Shown one piece after another: positions 1 through 14,130 of a stretch of 40,530 bases of DNA. Numbering within the stretch: position 1 is the stretch's first letter; each line of letters starts with the position of its first letter. The position numbers and the translations under genes are program-made. This DNA comes from a phage. The notes below the pieces were generated by a model. That model had not been told where the DNA came from, ran no database searches, and was given only the letters and a program-made list of their open reading frames with translations. The stretch is taken from the sequence record PZ513997.1. The stretch is one strand, 5' to 3'.

Positions 1-1443
1 ATGTCACTTGTAAGTCTAGTACGCGACACTACTCAAGATATCAAGCACAAGGCAGATATTCTTCTTGATTATCTGGACCGCCAGGAGCAAGGCTTAGGTC
101 AGGTTCAGGAGTTTGTAGAATCCTCCACTATTCTGAATATCCCTTCTTTGCGTAGCTTACTACCTTCCTCCGAGGGTCAGGTGGTGCAAGTACTAAGTAG
201 TTACAGCACCGCCGCTACACAACTCCATTTAGGTGGTGGGCAGTTCCAAGCTGTTAATAACCTGCAAGCAGAGCCAGACGATGGCGGTATTGTAGTGCAC
301 AGTACGCATCCTACGCTGGTATGGAAACGCATTAACTTCACTGCTTATGATATGCAGTTCTGGGGTGTAGTAGCTGATGCAAGTACTGATAACGCAGCAG
401 CCATTACCCGCGCTACTCAGTACGCCCGGCGTAACCGAATTGTACTGGAAGCCCCCGCAGGCAGTATTCATACCAGTGAAATGGTCCCCCTGTACGATAA
501 CATGGGTATACGTGGGCATGGTCGCGCCGAGAATACAGTATTCTACAAGACCACTAACAACGGGTTCAACTACACCAAGAACGGGGTAACTGTCCTTACT
601 GTAGATGCGTTGGCTGGGTTTGTGCCTAAAGAGTGGGACCTCGCTGATTACGAGATAAAGAGTTTCTGTGTGCATGCACAGCTTATTGGCTGTATGTTCC
701 GCAGACTTGGCCTCAGTGCTGAGAACGTAGCCACAACTCGCCCACAGTACGGCCTGCATATCGGCAAGGCAGCTACAGCGGTCGTGCGTCAGTGTACATT
801 CGAAGGTGGTTACATTGGCATTAAGGGCTATAACGTATTCAGTAGCGTCTTCGAGAGTGTAGCAGCGGTGCAGTTCAATGGCTATGGCTATGCTGGTGTA
901 AGTATCAGCGACTACCGTAACAGCACTTTATACAACTCAGGTACATCACTGGACATGCGTATCGTGCAGGTACGTGGATACCAGTTCGGCTTTGAACTGG
1001 ACCGCCTGCAGTACAGTACCCTTATCGATTGTACAGCAGAAGAAATCGTCCCTATGGCTGGGGAAACCACAAGCTACGCCTTCAGTATGTACGACCCGTT
1101 CTGTATCACAATGCTGAACTGTGCTACCGAGTTCGTTAAGGGTGGACAGATTCGTGTACTAGGTTTCGCTAACCCTAGCTTCCGACCGCAGCTTAAAGTT
1201 ACCGGATTCATTGCTATAGACCAGCAGAACCCGGCTGCGCTTACTCCCATCTACCTTGTCGACAACGGGGGTACTACAGGTATGAACGTTGTTATAGAGG
1301 CATCTGAACTATCCAGAAACACTGCTCTGAGCAATAACGGGCAGCCGAGTGTACAAGGTGCAGGAGCTAAGGTAATCCTGATTGGATGCTCTGGAGAGGA
1401 CTGGGTAGCTTCTGGTAGTGGGGTATTCACTAGACTCGCTTAA
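1..1443 (+). CDS. tail spike-like receptor-binding protein, possible beta-helix polysaccharide depolymerase
   Basis: 480 aa ORF. C-terminal two thirds are rich in short G/N/V/I/S/T beta-strand-like segments (e.g. 'GYIGIKGYNVFSSVFESVAAVQFNGYGYAGVSISDY'), typical of parallel beta-helix tail spikes. Sits beside lysis and fibre genes. No T7 gp17-type N-terminal anchor domain. Assignment is by composition and context only. Confidence 0.4.
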   Translation: MSLVSLVRDTTQDIKHKADILLDYLDRQEQGLGQVQEFVESSTILNIPSLRSLLPSSEGQVVQVLSSYSTAATQLHLGGGQFQAVNNLQAEPDDGGIVVHSTHPTLVWKRINFTAYDMQFWGVVADASTDNAAAITRATQYARRNRIVLEAPAGSIHTSEMVPLYDNMGIRGHGRAENTVFYKTTNNGFNYTKNGVTVLTVDALAGFVPKEWDLADYEIKSFCVHAQLIGCMFRRLGLSAENVATTRPQYGLHIGKAATAVVRQCTFEGGYIGIKGYNVFSSVFESVAAVQFNGYGYAGVSISDYRNSTLYNSGTSLDMRIVQVRGYQFGFELDRLQYSTLIDCTAEEIVPMAGETTSYAFSMYDPFCITMLNCATEFVKGGQIRVLGFANPSFRPQLKVTGFIAIDQQNPAALTPIYLVDNGGTTGMNVVIEASELSRNTALSNNGQPSVQGAGAKVILIGCSGEDWVASGSGVFTRLA

Positions 1444-1983
1444 ATGCTATCGAATAAAATCAAGGCAGCGCTGGCAGGGTCTTCCCTGCTGGGCGCGAGC
1501 CTATTCGCAGTAATTGAAAGCAACGAAGGCTTATCCCTCACTGCTTACAAAGATTCCGCAGGCGTACCTACCATCTGCTATGGCGAGACTAAAGGCGTTA
1601 AAATGGGCCAAAAGGCTACGCTGTCGCAGTGTCAGGCCATGCTGATACAGTCAGCAGGGGAACACGCTAAGGCTCTTGACGGGCTTCCTATGCATCTTAC
1701 GGACGTACAGCTTCTGGGAGCCATAGACCTAACCTATAACATTGGGGTATCAGGTTTCAAGAACAGCACCGTGAAGCGCAAGCTAATGCAAGGGGATAAT
1801 AAAGGTGCTGCTCAGGCCGTACTAGCGTGGCGCTACATCACTGTTAAGGGTAAGAAGTACGATTGCTCAGTTAAGGCCAACAAGGTCTGCTACGGCCTCT
1901 GGAAGCGCCGTGTTTGGGAATCCCAAGCTATTGGCAATGAATTTAAATCAATGCAGGCAGCAGTAGCTGCTATGCCTAAATAA
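1444..1983 (+). CDS. SAR endolysin, T4-lysozyme-like muramidase (GH24)
   Basis: 179 aa. 'ESNEGLSLTAYKDSAGVPTICYGET' matches the T4 lysozyme catalytic region '[21 protein letters not shown]' with the same Glu-Asp-Thr spacing. The N-terminal Gly/Ala-rich weakly hydrophobic segment 'KIKAALAGSSLLGASLFAVI' directly precedes the catalytic Glu, as in signal-arrest-release endolysins (P1 Lyz, phiKMV gp45). Confidence 0.8.
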   Translation: MLSNKIKAALAGSSLLGASLFAVIESNEGLSLTAYKDSAGVPTICYGETKGVKMGQKATLSQCQAMLIQSAGEHAKALDGLPMHLTDVQLLGAIDLTYNIGVSGFKNSTVKRKLMQGDNKGAAQAVLAWRYITVKGKKYDCSVKANKVCYGLWKRRVWESQAIGNEFKSMQAAVAAMPK

Positions 1984-3084
1984 ATGAGTCTAATTAATCA
2001 GCGCCGTCGTATCTCTAAGGGTGGCAATACCGGCGGTGGTGGCGGTACTGGGCCACAAGGACCTGTAGGGGAGCAAGGCCCTGTAGGGCCTATGGGTCCG
2101 GCAGGTGCAGATGGCCCAGTAGGTCCAGTAGGTCCAGTCGGTCCACAAGGTCCTCAAGGCCCAGCTGGGCCTCAGGGTCCGCAAGGTCTGCAAGGTCCTG
2201 AAGGTGTTCAAGGAGCTAAGGGAGATAAGGGCGATACTGGTCCAGCGGGGCCAGCGGGTCTCAACTTCCGTGCTGCTTGGGTTCCGGGCTTGACCTATGC
2301 TTTACAGGATTCAGTAGCCTACAATGGTAGTACTTGGTTTGCTAATTCGGCTATTGAGGCAGACGTAACGCCCGGTACTGATCCTCGTTGGGTGCTGCTT
2401 GCTATGCAGGGTACTAAGGGGGATACCGGACCTACAGGTCCACAGGGGCCTCGCGGAGTGCAAGGCGTGCCCGGAGACGTAGGCCCTCAGGGTCCGCAGG
2501 GTATAGCAGGCCCGCAGGGTATTCGCGGTCCTCAAGGTGATACCGGCGAGCAAGGTCCCGCAGGGCCACAGGGCGCTAGAGGTATACAGGGAGTTAAAGG
2601 CGATAAAGGCGACAAGGGTGATAAAGGGGATACAGGCGCTACTGGACCCCAAGGACCCGCAGGTCAAAATAATACCAATAATCCAGTATATACTACACAA
2701 CTTGCAGTATCTACTAGCTATTCGGCAATAGCTATTCCTAATAACCCCGGAGTATCCTTAACGGTTAGACGTGTCAGCAATAATATTGAGTATTCATTTA
2801 CTGGTAACTCCATTGCGGGTAGGTACTTCGACGTAGAATTAGTTAACTTCCCCTCAGCGGACGTAGTCAAAAGGTATCAATCTAACCATACAATAGCAGG
2901 TACTAGCCGCTATGTAGTAGGCGACCCCGCAGGCTACACTGGTACAGGATACAAGAAGATTCAAATTACTGCAAGGGATTGGGGAGATAAGAATATTATT
3001 ATCATAGACCTGTTCCACCTACAACGAGCTGGGGATGCTAACTTCAACATCGCCATTAGGATTGAGACCTTTAAACTTCCTTAA
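1984..3084 (+). CDS. collagen-like (Gly-X-Y) repeat protein, probable tail fibre or fibre-associated protein
   Basis: 366 aa. Two long uninterrupted G-X-Y tracts ('[46 protein letters not shown]...' and '[52 protein letters not shown]...') followed by a non-repetitive C-terminal domain. Confidence 0.65.
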
Positions 3085-3684
3085 ATGGCGGTAGTAAGAA
3101 AGCAGCGTAGAGTTGACGGTAAGAAGCAGAACTACTATTGGGATACTGAATTATGTATTGAGGTAGCAGCTCCTGTAAGGAAAAAGCACTATAGCATAGC
3201 TAATCCTATGCAAGGCTTGATAGGTTACGCTGTGATGCACGATAGCGAGCTTAAACAAGGTATAACAGACGCGTTTGCTAACTTTAACGGTAGTCAGATG
3301 CGTAACGGTTTAACTGGTATCAGTATACCTAAGTTGATTGAGTTAGCAGATACACAACCAGAGCTATATAGTACTGAGCATCCAGAGAGTACTAACCATG
3401 CTGCGTATGATGCAGCGCTTACTATGCTTCTAGTATTAGTGCGTGAACGTATCCCTGAATGGGAAGAGGCGTACAGATATGATATGCATAATAGTGGGTT
3501 AAATATCGTTGATTTAATGTGTGAACAAGGCTATGACACTGATAACTATACCGGTGCTATAGCTAATAGTCTTAATCAGGTTTGGAGTGAAGGTAAGCTC
3601 TTAGTAGGCACTGAGGCTAACAAGCATTGGCTTAAATCTCAGGGATTTTCTAAACTGCGTTCCCAGCGTAATAGATACATTTGA
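3085..3684 (+). CDS. hypothetical protein (weak resemblance to DnaQ-like 3'-5' exonuclease motifs)
   Basis: 199 aa ORF. 'YYWDTEL' resembles an Exo I D-x-E motif and 'NHAAYDAALTML' resembles an H-x-A-x-x-D motif, but spacing is atypical. Weak. Confidence 0.3.
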   Translation: MAVVRKQRRVDGKKQNYYWDTELCIEVAAPVRKKHYSIANPMQGLIGYAVMHDSELKQGITDAFANFNGSQMRNGLTGISIPKLIELADTQPELYSTEHPESTNHAAYDAALTMLLVLVRERIPEWEEAYRYDMHNSGLNIVDLMCEQGYDTDNYTGAIANSLNQVWSEGKLLVGTEANKHWLKSQGFSKLRSQRNRYI

Positions 3685-9915: not shown

Positions 9916-11130
9916 ATGAGCAGCATACTGATTTGGGATATTGAAACGCAGAACGTACCTTACTATGGCGGGGTTGCTACACCTTACTGCCCAGATAACT
10001 ACATTGTGGAATCAGGCTTCAGGATTGATAGAACTAATCCAGATGGTACGGTGACGTGCAGTGATGTAGGTAGCGTGCGTTACGAGTCGCGGGAGGAGTT
10101 CATCTCAGCACCTAGTAGTCAGTGGTTGCCTATTCAGGACGATACTTGGTTAATGGTAATGCATAACGCCGCATATGAGATTAGCTGGGCGTTGACGTTT
10201 GCTAGGGAAGAGTTTGAAGCATTCCTGAAACGGGGAGGGCGCGTATTCGATACAATGCAAGGCGAGTACATTGCCTCAGACTTCCAAAACCTTTACCCAT
10301 CATTAGATGAGACGGCTCCTAAGTACGGCGGCAGCCACAAGGTTGACGGCGTTAAACTGCTATGGCAGCAGGGCGTGTTAACAGCAGATATTGACCCTGT
10401 ACTGCTGCATGAGTATCTAACAGGGCCAGAAGGTGATATCGTAAACACAGCGTTATGCTTCTACGGGCAGTGTGCAGTGTTCGCTGAGCGTGGGCAGATG
10501 CCTATGGTCTGGGAAAGGATGGATAGTGTACTGGCCTTAGCCTACTGCGAGTTCAACGGTGTGTACGTAGACATGCCTACAGCCAGAGCTAACCAGAAGG
10601 AGCAGGAGGACGCTATAGCAGAGCTGAAGCAGACGCTGCAAGGCTTCTTACCTGAACTGCCTGAGGGATTTGAGTTCAACTGGAACAGCGGTTATCATAT
10701 GAGTGCGTTGGTGTACGGCGGTACGGTTAAGTACAAGTGCAAGGTCCCGTATGACCCGCCAAAGTTTGTAAAGTTCGATGCCTACCTGGCCGATGTTAAG
10801 GGTACTCAGCAATACATAGATGTTAATGATTGGCAAGATAGCTGGACGTACAGCCGTGAAGTGTTTAAGTCTGGACGTAATAAAGGTCTGCCCAAAGTTT
10901 ACAAGGTGGAAAGTTCAGAGCAGTCTATGAAGTGGGGTGAGCGCCTGTATAAGTTCGAAGGGCTTGTGCACATCCAAGACCTACCAGCAGTATTGCAAGA
11001 GAAGTACGCAGAGCGCGGAGAGTTCCGAGGTGCTCAGACATTGGCAGATGGTACACCTGTGTTCAGTACAGGGACTGATGCTATGAAAGAACTGGCTAAC
11101 TATTTTATTGGGATGGAAGAGAATGAGTAA
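9916..11130 (+). CDS. DNA polymerase, N-terminal part (3'-5' exonuclease domain)
   Basis: 404 aa. Exo I motif 'ILIWDIETQN'. Followed in frame by the polymerase-domain ORF. Confidence 0.8.
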   Translation: MSSILIWDIETQNVPYYGGVATPYCPDNYIVESGFRIDRTNPDGTVTCSDVGSVRYESREEFISAPSSQWLPIQDDTWLMVMHNAAYEISWALTFAREEFEAFLKRGGRVFDTMQGEYIASDFQNLYPSLDETAPKYGGSHKVDGVKLLWQQGVLTADIDPVLLHEYLTGPEGDIVNTALCFYGQCAVFAERGQMPMVWERMDSVLALAYCEFNGVYVDMPTARANQKEQEDAIAELKQTLQGFLPELPEGFEFNWNSGYHMSALVYGGTVKYKCKVPYDPPKFVKFDAYLADVKGTQQYIDVNDWQDSWTYSREVFKSGRNKGLPKVYKVESSEQSMKWGERLYKFEGLVHIQDLPAVLQEKYAERGEFRGAQTLADGTPVFSTGTDAMKELANYFIGMEENE

Positions 11131-12285
11131 ATGAGTAACAAGGCTTCGGAGTTCTTCAAGGCATACAGTGAGATGACCTTGCGTGAGAAAGATTTAGGCT
11201 TCTATGAGAAGAAGGAATTTAACAAGGACGGTAGCCTGCGTAAGACTACAGGTATGCTTCCGTATGTAATCCCTCAGAAGGAAGACGGCAGCGGCATCAT
11301 TCATCACAGATTGAATCACTGCTCAACCACGACCGGACGACTATCAGCATCTAACCCGAATATGCAGCAGTTGCCGCGTGAATCTAAGGTTAAGCAGATT
11401 CTGCGTAGTCGTTACGGTGAGCAAGGTATGATTGCTCAGTGTGACTACTCAGCTATGGAAGTTGTAATGGGCTGTGTAATAACAGGTGATAAGAAACTAC
11501 TATCCTTGCTTGAAGCTGGTACAGATATGCACTGCTATCGTTTAGCATTCCAAGAGGGTATGCCTTATGAAGAAGTCTACGAGCTTTGCCATAACCCGGA
11601 TGCACCTAACCATAAGGAATGGAAGAAGAAACGAACAGCAATCAAAACCTTCAGCTTCGCAGCGCAGTATGGAGCTTCCGCTAAAGGACTGGCGTTCGCC
11701 TCTGGTGCCAGCCTGAAGGACGCTGAGAAGTTCTTAGCTAACGAAGAAGCCCTGTTCCCTGAATCTATTAAGTACCGTGATGTAATTGCAGCAGAGGTAA
11801 ATCGTACAGCACTGTTAGAGCCTATGCGCCGCGAGCAATCAGATGATGGTAGCTGGCGTATCTATCGGGAAGGCTATTTTACTGCTCCTTGTGGTACTCG
11901 TTACCGCTTCCGTCAGAAACCTGTATGGCGTGAAGGTAAGCAGGTCATGGACTTTAAACCTACAGAGATGGCTAACTATCCATTTCAAGGTTCAGGTTCT
12001 CTGCTTATGCTTATTGCGATGGGTATGATTCTGCGCGCAGGATTAGCTACGGATTGGGGTAACGGTAGTTGGTGCTTGTTAGCAACTGTACATGACTCCG
12101 TATATTGTGACTGTAAAGATGAGTCAACGGCGAGGGAAGTAGGTCAATTAATTAAGAAATGTATGGAAGGTGCAAGAGATAGAATGCTGCAACTTTGGCC
12201 TAACTTCGGAATACTACAGGACGTTAAATTCCCTGCCGAGTGTGGTATTGGTAAATCATTTAAAGAGGAGCAGGTACTTGGCTAA
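11131..12285 (+). CDS. DNA polymerase, C-terminal part (family A polymerase domain)
   Basis: 384 aa. Motif A 'CDYSAMEVV', motif B 'RTAIKTFSFAAQYGAS', motif C 'VHDSVYCDC'. Confidence 0.85.
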   Translation: MSNKASEFFKAYSEMTLREKDLGFYEKKEFNKDGSLRKTTGMLPYVIPQKEDGSGIIHHRLNHCSTTTGRLSASNPNMQQLPRESKVKQILRSRYGEQGMIAQCDYSAMEVVMGCVITGDKKLLSLLEAGTDMHCYRLAFQEGMPYEEVYELCHNPDAPNHKEWKKKRTAIKTFSFAAQYGASAKGLAFASGASLKDAEKFLANEEALFPESIKYRDVIAAEVNRTALLEPMRREQSDDGSWRIYREGYFTAPCGTRYRFRQKPVWREGKQVMDFKPTEMANYPFQGSGSLLMLIAMGMILRAGLATDWGNGSWCLLATVHDSVYCDCKDESTAREVGQLIKKCMEGARDRMLQLWPNFGILQDVKFPAECGIGKSFKEEQVLG

Positions 12286-12329
12286 GTGGTATTGGTAAAT
12301 CATTTAAAGAGGAGCAGGTACTTGGCTAA
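12242..12329 (+). repeat. exact 44-bp tandem duplication at a CDS junction
   Basis: 'gtggtattggtaaatcatttaaagaggagcaggtacttggctaa' occurs at 12242-12285 (polymerase 3' end) and again at 12286-12329 (start of the HNH ORF, GTG start, read in a different codon phase). This is the pattern expected when two CDSs that overlap by 44 bp are concatenated. Confidence 0.7.
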
Positions 12330-12825
12330 AGTTACTAAACCTATACCGGAAGGCATACGGGAATTTTGGAGATATGATTCTGAGAGTGGGAAATTAATAT
12401 GCATACAAAACATAAAGCGCACTAAGTACAGTGAAGGCATAGTTGCAGCTAGTCTTACAACTACAGGTAATTATCTAAAGCTGAATTTTAATAAGGTAAG
12501 CTACCTTCAGCATCGGGTAGCATGGTTCCTTTACTATAATGAACAACCTCCTGAAGTTATAGACCACAAGGACGGTAACGGCCTTAACAACGCTATAAAC
12601 AACCTGCGTGCTGCAGATGATGGTTGTAACATGATGGACATTACTGTAACTGCTAAATCCACTACAGGTATTAAAGGTGTCATGCCTGTACGGGGAGGTA
12701 AGCTGTTCCGTGCCGAAGTATGTGTAGATGGTAAGCGCTACCAGAAGCACAGCAAGGACGTAGCTTTCTTAGAGCAGTGGGTACAGGCTAAGCGTAAAGA
12801 ATTACACGGAGAGTTTTATAAATAG
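12286..12825 (+). CDS. HNH homing endonuclease with AP2-like DNA-binding domain
   Basis: 179 aa. HNH motif 'VIDHKDGNGLNNAINNLRAA' and AP2-like 'GIKGVMPVRGGKLFRAEVCVDGKRYQKHSKDVAFLEQWVQAKRKELHG'. Its 5' end is the second copy of the 44-bp duplicate. Confidence 0.75.
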   Translation: MVLVNHLKRSRYLAKVTKPIPEGIREFWRYDSESGKLICIQNIKRTKYSEGIVAASLTTTGNYLKLNFNKVSYLQHRVAWFLYYNEQPPEVIDHKDGNGLNNAINNLRAADDGCNMMDITVTAKSTTGIKGVMPVRGGKLFRAEVCVDGKRYQKHSKDVAFLEQWVQAKRKELHGEFYK

Positions 12826-12949
12826 ATGCTTGCTGACGCTACTGACCGTTTCCGGTTGGCTCCCTGCCTCGTCGATGTGTGTACTATACGGAAAGCATCC
12901 CTGCTTGTCAACAGCTATTTATAAGTGTACGGGAGGAACCGTTCAGTCT

Positions 12950-13050
12950 CGTTTTATCTACCCAGAGACTTCAGAAGGGCAACCGCTTATCGTCCTCGGT
13001 TAACGTCTTGCTATGTGGCACATCTTACTTACTTCGTTACTGCTTGTCAA
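12950..13050 (+). repeat. copy B of the roughly 100-bp repeated non-coding element (paired with 4033-4140)
   Basis: See copy A. Lies in the 366-bp non-coding-looking island 12826-13191 downstream of the HNH gene. Stem aaccg/cggtt at 12981-13001. Confidence 0.45.
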
Positions 13051-13191
13051 TCTCTTTCTTAAATGATTCTTACTTTCATCTACTACCTCCTATTAATAAA
13101 GTTAAGGCTGCAATCTCTGAAGACTGCATCACTAACCCTACTTAAGTTAGCGAGTCTTATTTCTCCTAGACTCTCATCTGCATCACACTGA

Positions 13192-13380
13192 ATGAAAGTA
13201 AGAATCATCAATCACGATGCTTATGGTCCTTTCTTAACTGATACATGTAAGGAACTGTACGCAGTAGGTACAGTGCATGAAGTACAAGATTTCTTCCCTG
13301 ACACGGGGGAGGTTATCTTAGGGTATGAAGATGAAGGATTTACCTTTGATCCATCAGAGTATGAAGTTGTGGAGGAGTAG
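13192..13380 (+). CDS. small acidic hypothetical protein
   Basis: 62 aa, strongly acidic ('...FDPSEYEVVEE'). Immediately upstream of the pentapeptide-repeat gene. Confidence 0.35.
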   Translation: MKVRIINHDAYGPFLTDTCKELYAVGTVHEVQDFFPDTGEVILGYEDEGFTFDPSEYEVVEE

Positions 13381-13902
13381 ATGAACTATTTAGATATCTG
13401 CGAGAAGTACAATGTAGGAAGCCTGCGCGACGCTAACCTGCGCGACGCTGACCTGTACGGCGCTAACCTGTACGGCGCTGACCTGCGCGACGCTAACCTG
13501 TACGGCGCTAACCTGTGCGGCGCTGACCTGCGCGACGCTAACCTGTACGGCGCTAACCTGTGCGGCGCTGACCTGCGCGGCGCTAACCTGCGCGGCGCTA
13601 ACCTGCGCGGCGCTAACCTGTACGGCGCTAACCTGCGCGGCGCTAACCTGCGCCTAACCTGCGCGGCGCTAACCTGTACGGCGCTAACCTGCGCGGCGCT
13701 AACCTGCGCGGCGCTAACCTGTGCGGCGCTAACCTGTGCGGCGCTAACCTGCGCGGCGCTAACCTGCGCGGCGCTAACCTGTACGGCGCTAACCTGCGCG
13801 ACGCTAACCTGCGCGACGCTGACCTGTGCGGCGCTGACCTGCGCGACGCTGACCTGTGCGGCGCTAACCTGCGCGGCGCTGACCTGCATGGGACTGACTT
13901 GA
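13381..13902 (+). CDS. pentapeptide-repeat protein (Qnr/MfpA-type fold), reading frame disrupted
   Basis: First 90 codons encode perfect A(N/D)LxG pentapeptides ('[30 protein letters not shown]...'). At 13651-13661 one 15-nt unit is 11 nt, shifting the called frame into 'LTCAALTC...'. The pentapeptide frame continues to a TAG at 13935-13937 ('...[19 protein letters not shown]'). Confidence 0.6.
13426..13886 (+). repeat. 15-bp tandem repeat array (about 31 units, one truncated to 11 bp)
   Basis: Units of form 'cgcgRcgctRacctg', head to tail with no spacers. This is the coding repeat of the pentapeptide-repeat gene. Truncated unit at 13651-13661. Confidence 0.85.
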
Positions 13903-14130
13903 TTGATTGTAATTTATGGGGAACAGTACTTTATTAGCCTATACAAGGGAACAGTACGCGCAGGTTGTCAGTCGCATACGATAGCGGAGTGGCGAAGTTT
14001 TAGTAAGGAAGAAGTAATTGCTATGGACGGGCGTAATTCTCTTAAATACTACCCACGTCTTTTAGACATCATTGATTTTTACTGTGGTAAGGGCGAGCGT
14101 CCTGATTGGGTAATGAAAATAAACAAGTAA
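13903..14130 (+). CDS. hypothetical protein (called with TTG start; true start probably the internal ATG)
   Basis: 75 aa as called. The first roughly 11 codons overlap the true C-terminus of the pentapeptide-repeat frame, so the start is probably downstream. Confidence 0.3.

Follow-up and report, generated by a model that had tools for sequence, protein, structure and literature searches.

A frameshifted pentapeptide-repeat gene of Escherichia phage vB_EcoP_PAS7, its probable gap origin and its accessory gene family

A run of 15-nt units, preceded by an ATG and interrupted near its middle by a unit that is 4 nt too short, raises the questions of whether the locus holds one gene or several, how the interruption arose and what an intact product would do. 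An earlier note on this DNA had read the locus as a disrupted gene for a candidate DNA mimic of the Qnr/MfpA type. Here we analysed the locus within the whole stretch of phage DNA in which it was presented (40,530 nt, sequence record PZ513997.1), called the window in the following; all coordinates are those of the window unless another sequence is named.

Relation of the window to the PAS7 genome

Comparison by BLAST of the window with the genome of Escherichia phage vB_EcoP_PAS7 (OQ921331.1; Autographiviridae, Slopekvirinae) gave blocks having 0 mismatches, with gaps at gene borders only. Each gene in the window abuts its neighbour, with the intergenic DNA gone and overlaps between calls written twice, and calls on the minus strand stand in flipped orientation, as at 12826-13191, which is PAS7 10216-10606 reverse-complemented. 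The window is a series of PAS7 gene calls joined head to tail and not natural DNA, which means that ORF ends, overlaps and missing promoters as seen in it are not biology. The odd ORF ends at the locus studied here are a product of this concatenation. The assignment of the DNA to a T7-like phage was correct in the broad sense, as given by the PAS7 taxonomy.

Missing from the window are also 88 nt found 5' of the gene (PAS7 10779-10866; 3190-3278 in the locus L001). This segment contains a hairpin terminator, AGCCCT-GCGTAGGA-AGGGCT followed by TTTATT, together with an AT-rich stretch (TTGTACAGTAATAAATTAAT...). Both the hairpin and the AT-rich stretch are kept in all five related phages, suggesting that the gene forms a separate transcription unit.

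Some further features of the window were seen. Its gene borders are unreliable, for example at 13380/13381, 13902/13903 and 14130/14131, and the first three genes (tailspike, endolysin and tail fibre; blocks 1-3084) stand in reversed order as compared to GenBank. Three tiny abutting ORF calls of 32, 45 and 42 aa at 12826-13191 correspond, in reverse complement, to a 365-nt gap without annotation in PAS7 (10226-10589), between the HNH gene and a 62-aa gene, and probably represent non-coding sequence that was taken for genes. The DNA polymerase is present as two ORFs, 9916-11130 and 11131-12285, with the next gene at 12286-12825. An 8-nt overlap of these two ORFs is seen in PAS7, in phage P64441 and in an ERZ27239236 contig, and since the split is thereby conserved among relatives it is not a PAS7 error. 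An HNH endonuclease gene directly follows the polymerase in PAS7 and in the ERZ27239236 contig, and is absent from that place in P64441.

The repeat array and the frameshift site

The features of the locus are as follows.

13381-13419, plus strand: start codon and 13-aa N-terminal leader, with the leader pattern MNY(L/Q)xIC kept in 5/5 syntenic orthologues
13381-13902, plus strand: called ORF of 173 aa, consisting of the leader, 15.6 true pentapeptides and an 82-aa out-of-frame 'LTCAA' tail
13422-13887, plus strand: tandem array of about 32 pentapeptides, as defined by Tandem Repeats Finder, a unit table, Pfam Pentapeptide (E=1.2e-67) and GC content
13643-13664, plus strand: frameshift site, with an 11-nt unit occurring twice (CTAACCTGCGC x2), also in OQ921331.1
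13654-13898, plus strand: units 17-32, forming the second array half and read in the pentapeptide frame, from three-frame translation of the real genome
13899-13906, plus strand: TTGA written twice, a construction artefact from the 4-nt overlap of two PAS7 calls
13903-14130, plus strand: C-terminal domain, which has its own call as a 75-aa 'hypothetical protein' with a TTG start (WMX18798.1), with the motifs GCQxH, EWR, MDG and GKGERPxW
13386-13889, minus strand: spurious ORF across the array, a 'modular polyketide synthase' in GenBank (WMX18797.1)

Tandem Repeats Finder reported only one array, having a period of 15, 31.3 copies, 87% matches and a score of 659, in agreement with the about 31 head-to-tail units counted earlier. 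The frame set by ATG 13381 gives A(N/D)L(R/Y/C)(G/D) in every unit, whereby the Ala (GCT) and Leu (CTG) codons are constant in all units and variation is confined to the three codons for outward-facing residues. The proposed coding of A(N/D)LxG pentapeptides was thus confirmed, both by this translation and by Pfam PF00805, which matched the repaired product described below with 223 bits (cut-off 20.2; E=1.2e-67) and the called ORF with 98 bits, in the latter case not beyond about residue 91. The GC content was 69% in the array and 47% in the window.

One odd unit comprises 11 nt as compared to 15, with GGCG absent between 13653 and 13654, exactly as had been noted, and GenBank OQ921331.1 carries the same 4-nt gap at about position 11139. 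The gap, which leaves the two 11-nt units as perfect copies, is located 1-4 nt from the midpoint of the array, and both halves of the array are otherwise perfect, without any sequence decay at its flanks. Downstream of the gap the called ORF continues in the 'LTCAA' frame to 13902, the shifted 'LTCAALTC...' reading that the earlier note had pointed out, while three-frame translation showed the pentapeptide frame to have no start codon until TTG 13903. The repeat array, its coding nature and the 4-nt gap are real, far beyond chance.

One repaired gene in place of three annotated features

In the PAS7 genome (10867-11612 of OQ921331.1), the pentapeptide frame that follows the gap continues through the next call, to a stop at window position 14130. 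When 4 nt were added, the gene became a single ORF of 249 aa, with the 13-aa leader, 32 pentapeptides and a C-terminal domain of about 70 aa. The deposited sequence has no ORF that joins leader, array and C-terminal domain; they came together solely upon the 4-nt addition. The PAS7 C-terminal domain retains all 18 invariant columns of its relatives.

This model replaces the proposed true frame ending at 13937 and the 186-aa product derived from it. In the window, TTGA is found at both 13899-13902 and 13903-13906 (window GACTTGATTGATTGTAA, PAS7 GACTTGATTGTAA), and this duplication shifts the frame a second time, thereby producing a false protein end at 13937; the conserved C-terminal domain was missed in that product, and the real repair gives 249 aa.

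The PAS7 locus is one frameshifted pentapeptide-repeat gene, and the reverse 'modular polyketide synthase', the 75-aa 'hypothetical protein' and an uncalled forward ORF, as three features in relation to the GenBank record, all represent that gene. The polyketide synthase annotation (WMX18797.1) was rejected: the sole Pfam match of the reverse ORF was Decapeptide, with 34.5 bits where the cut-off is 45, the orthologous genes are all on the plus strand, and the repeat is open in several frames. The gene has the DNA polymerase and HNH genes on one side and a phosphoesterase gene on the other. The called ORF 13381-13902 is on record nowhere, and the neighbouring 62-aa gene was found in the GenBank record only. 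The value of these results for the PAS7 locus is mainly corrective, in that they concern a misannotated gene in a processed window.

Orthologues and repeat-number variation

The nearest relative is the syntenic, intact XXQ42861.1 of Escherichia phage vB_EcoP_P64441 (Slopekvirinae), having 193 aa and 20 units. Four metagenome contigs of related phages (from ENA/Logan) also carry the gene, syntenic and intact, with 11, 8, 8 and 4 units, counts that may be collapsed as they come from metagenome assemblies. These four contigs share the MNY..IC leader and the upstream hairpin. As in PAS7, the genes of P64441 and of the contigs lie between the 62-aa gene and the phosphoesterase gene, and they have the leader, the hairpin and the C-terminal domain (71-78% identity) in common with it; all five syntenic orthologues are single intact ORFs (5/5), in contrast to the frameshifted PAS7 gene with its 32 units. 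An exact match to the PAS7 leader was sought in IMG/VR, and none was found there.

Using the C-terminal 83 aa as query, tblastn gave 56 phage records, and 120 proteins were found in a large collection of proteins, almost all of them bearing the name 'pentapeptide repeat-containing protein'. The C-terminal 74 aa matched PHROG 37032 with E=3e-32, which gives the PAS7 protein a C-terminal domain of the orf232 type (PHROG 7713 / 37032). Among P22-like phages, Orf-232 of ST64T has 14.7 units and is encoded in the early-left operon, between ral and gene 17, with further homologues being orf232 of phage L, ORF19 of ST104, gp42 of epsilon34 and gp37 of g341c. These have, like PAS7, a leader, a 15-bp A(D/N)LxG array and the same C-terminal domain (61-66% identity to that of PAS7), but they differ in having another, longer leader (MNSADLSKILEEHKVW...), in belonging to temperate phages and in being intact. 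In Vibrio phage 24, the homologue is flanked by methyltransferase genes on one side and a primase gene on the other. The PAS7 gene is an ordinary member of a phage and prophage accessory family that is already annotated in many phages, and the genomic position of this gene family is early or accessory. For the homologue in Yersinia phage fEV-1, a parallel to T7 ocr as 'first gene' was considered and rejected, because that genome starts at its terminase genes and the first-gene position therefore has no ocr-like meaning.

A survey of IMG/VR comprised 80 loci, 54 of them complete. Intact genes, with about 3-34 units, were found at 53 of the 54 complete loci, and about 26 of the 80 contigs start inside the array; many of the NCBI homologues are likewise marked 'partial'. 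The sole frameshifted locus among the complete ones (L011, IMGVR_UViG_2909216862_000002) is a P22-like prophage copy with deletions of 2, 2 and 1 nt clustered mid-array at 2640-2760, where the loss of frame seems to reflect a poor consensus and not biology. Members of the family are frequent in phages and prophages of enterobacteria, and their arrays routinely break short-read assemblies.

Bacterial contingency loci resemble the PAS7 array in being tandem repeats within coding regions that rapidly change in copy number. The unit length of contingency repeats cannot be divided by three, and they thereby switch the frame; the PAS7 unit of 15 nt is divisible by three, and slippage would alter the length of the protein, not its expression. 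Although phages L and ST64T share >99.9% identity, their orf232 genes differ by one 15-bp unit, in frame (PMC8022706), which marks the array as a fast-changing, in-frame variable-number repeat. Whole units are accordingly gained and lost with the frame maintained, and the helix predicted from them differs in length among close relatives, from 4 to 34 units or about 1 to 8.5 coils.

Origin of the 4-nt gap

The PAS7 genome was assembled using MIRA 4.0.2 from 2x150-bp MiSeq reads (PMC11522302). Reads of 150 nt are too short to span the array of 466 bp, in which the central units are nearly identical copies of ANL(R/Y/C)G. The chance that a random position would lie as near to the midpoint of the array as the junction does is 0.006-0.019, a probability that is post hoc and subject to the fuzzy borders of the array. 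That the gap lies where the array is most distant from unique sequence, in a MIRA assembly of 2x150-bp reads, favours an artefact over a recent null mutation. The same is indicated by the many contigs that start in the array and the partial NCBI homologues, by the three small indels mid-array at the other frameshifted locus, L011, and by the lack of decay flanking the gap in a gene that has kept all of the invariant C-terminal residues. Against this stands that a clean 4-nt deletion without microhomology is atypical for Illumina data or an assembler, which would normally need reads bearing the deletion. On balance we find it somewhat probable that the gap is a short-read assembly error, and this explanation, which was among those first offered, stays live.

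The deletion could instead be real, with the PAS7 stock having a recently pseudogenised and dispensable accessory gene, a reading that we consider possible but not the probable one. The resulting null allele would give the 173-aa product, with about four beta-helix coils followed by the nonsense 'LTCAA' tail and lacking the C-terminal domain. The deletion is, after all, present in the deposited genome, indels of 4 nt are rare in Illumina data, and the gene is accessory, length-variable and missing from many relatives, making its loss on the isolation host plausible. The location of the junction at the array midpoint, with the low chance probability given above, and the inability of 150-nt reads to span the array nevertheless speak against a real deletion, as do the intact genes in the 5/5 syntenic orthologues and at 53/54 other loci. 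Nor did the junction have any microhomology, as a sign of replication slippage, whether evaluated as a loss of 4 nt or as a gain of 11 nt. Since there is no decay elsewhere in the gene, any real inactivation must have been recent.

It was also considered whether the interruption has a function, either as a slipped-strand on/off switch, as a programmed -1 frameshift, or for separate synthesis of the C-terminal domain from TTG 13903. Two forward frames are open through the array, which accounts for the long shifted ORF, a weak GGGA is found 7-10 nt upstream of TTG 13903, and distant relatives include short proteins having only the C-terminal domain. A slippage of 15 nt preserves the frame, however, as in the documented in-frame loss of 15 bp in this family (PMC8022706), and the on/off switch that had been suggested is thereby unsupported. 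For programmed -1 frameshifting or transcriptional slippage, a slippery heptamer (XXXYYYZ) or a long homopolymer would be expected, but no such heptamer was found anywhere in 13381-13902, nor any homopolymer of at least 5 nt in that ORF. A -1 shift would furthermore give a four-residue unit and break the register of the helix, and the orthologues are single ORFs. A functional interruption is therefore, in our judgement, highly improbable. The gap would thus most likely be an assembly error, next most likely a very recent inactivating mutation, and not a regulatory device. Taken as a whole, the explanation that we lean towards is that of one PAS7 gene, belonging to the accessory family, with a gap that most likely stems from assembly.

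The pentapeptide fold and its relation to Qnr and MfpA

From the Pfam match, the repeat region of the PAS7 protein is predicted to be a pentapeptide beta-helix, and the right-handed quadrilateral beta-helix that the earlier note had said to look for was recovered as the fold. This is shared with Qnr, MfpA, AlbG and McbG, which also have the Pfam repeat. A characterised phage pentapeptide-repeat protein was not found in literature searches. The repaired product scored 61.2 bits with the NCBIfam model for Qnr (cut-off 240), 68.8 with that for MfpA (cut-off 360) and 48.6 with that for QnrB (cut-off 460). With scores far below these cut-offs, the protein shares the fold of Qnr and MfpA but not their family membership, so that of the proposed Qnr/MfpA signature the beta-helix was upheld and the family was not. 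A match to the NCBIfam 'Alr5209 family' (208 bits, cut-off 125) was rejected as evidence for orthology, because that score is a sum over four repeat stretches of a repeat model of 113 positions.

It was then considered that the intact protein could be a DNA mimic like Qnr and MfpA, binding gyrase or another enzyme acting on DNA such as a restriction enzyme or RecBCD. The common fold would agree with this, as would a length of 32 units resembling that of MfpA and Qnr and the P22-like copies that adjoin ral near abc1/abc2. In known mimics the outward residues are typically negative (PMC10886550), but the repaired PAS7 protein has a net charge of +3 and a pI of 8.3, with 18 R+K and 16 D+E in the repeat region, and the net charges of the orthologues range from -6 to +5. 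An electronegative DNA-like surface, as judged here from composition, was thus lacking, and with a near-neutral charge DNA mimicry is unsupported. Helix length, from 4 to 34 units in the family and 4 to 20 in the orthologues, is too variable to match a fixed segment of DNA, with the proviso that metagenome arrays may be collapsed. Other differences to Qnr, MfpA, AlbG and McbG are the absence of Qnr loops, a C-terminal domain that is unlike the dimerising helix of Qnr and MfpA, and the encoding by a variable-length tandem array at the DNA level. McbG and QnrB did not inhibit BREX (PMC7261183), which shows that the fold alone gives no anti-defence activity, and a PADLOC search with the PAS7 protein gave no match. 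The likeness to Ocr (T7 gp0.3), ArdA and Arn lies only in the proposed logic of an early phage protein that occupies a host enzyme, since these have unrelated folds and are strongly acidic whereas the PAS7 protein is near neutral. We regard DNA mimicry, which had been put forward for this gene, as quite improbable.

The C-terminal domain and the possible role of the family

Each member of the family consists of a short leader, a pentapeptide beta-helix encoded by a near-perfect 15-bp array and a conserved C-terminal domain of about 70 aa with a putative alpha/beta fold. The C-terminal domain had no match in Pfam, NCBIfam, PADLOC or PDB sequence searches, and among the PHROGs it matched only families of unassigned function. 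A profile made for it collected 630 clusters at 50% identity. In the best 150 profile proteins, Pentapeptide repeats occurred in 77, a YdcK solenoid in 25, and hexapeptide or bactofilin repeats in a few. Occurrence of the same C-terminal domain on different solenoids makes it the constant, autonomous module and the solenoid the variable one. Residues that hardly vary are Gly-Cys in GCQxH, Trp in EWR and Met in MDG. A solenoid of variable length together with a C-terminal domain lacking a recognisable fold or family is of modest wider interest, in that a function found for one member could extend to hundreds of genes.

Judging from fold, genomic context and variability, which are the basis for any functional reading here, the protein may perhaps be an early accessory protein whose C-terminal domain serves in assembly or in binding to a conserved partner. 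The fast-changing, charge-mixed surface of the helix could then conceivably act as a protein-interaction rod or a steric blocker in host takeover or counter-defence. On this reading it would not be an acidic DNA mimic of the Qnr/MfpA/Ocr type.

A more far-reaching proposal holds that the proteins combining a solenoid with the GCQxH/EWR/MDG domain form a large, unrecognised class of counter-defence or host-takeover proteins, that array slippage tunes the solenoid in an arms race, and that the PAS7 frameshift is a real and selected loss or truncation allele. We consider this proposal unlikely. If true, it would concern a class of 630 clusters in which one C-terminal module is carried on pentapeptide, YdcK-type, hexapeptide or bactofilin-like solenoids.

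Two observations were finally made among distant relatives (P0121-P0270 in our numbering). Some are proteins of 56-90 aa that consist of the C-terminal domain with almost no solenoid, and one protein of 525 aa (P0228) has a helical 'DW..VS..D.A..GG..LL' part that is repeated four times.
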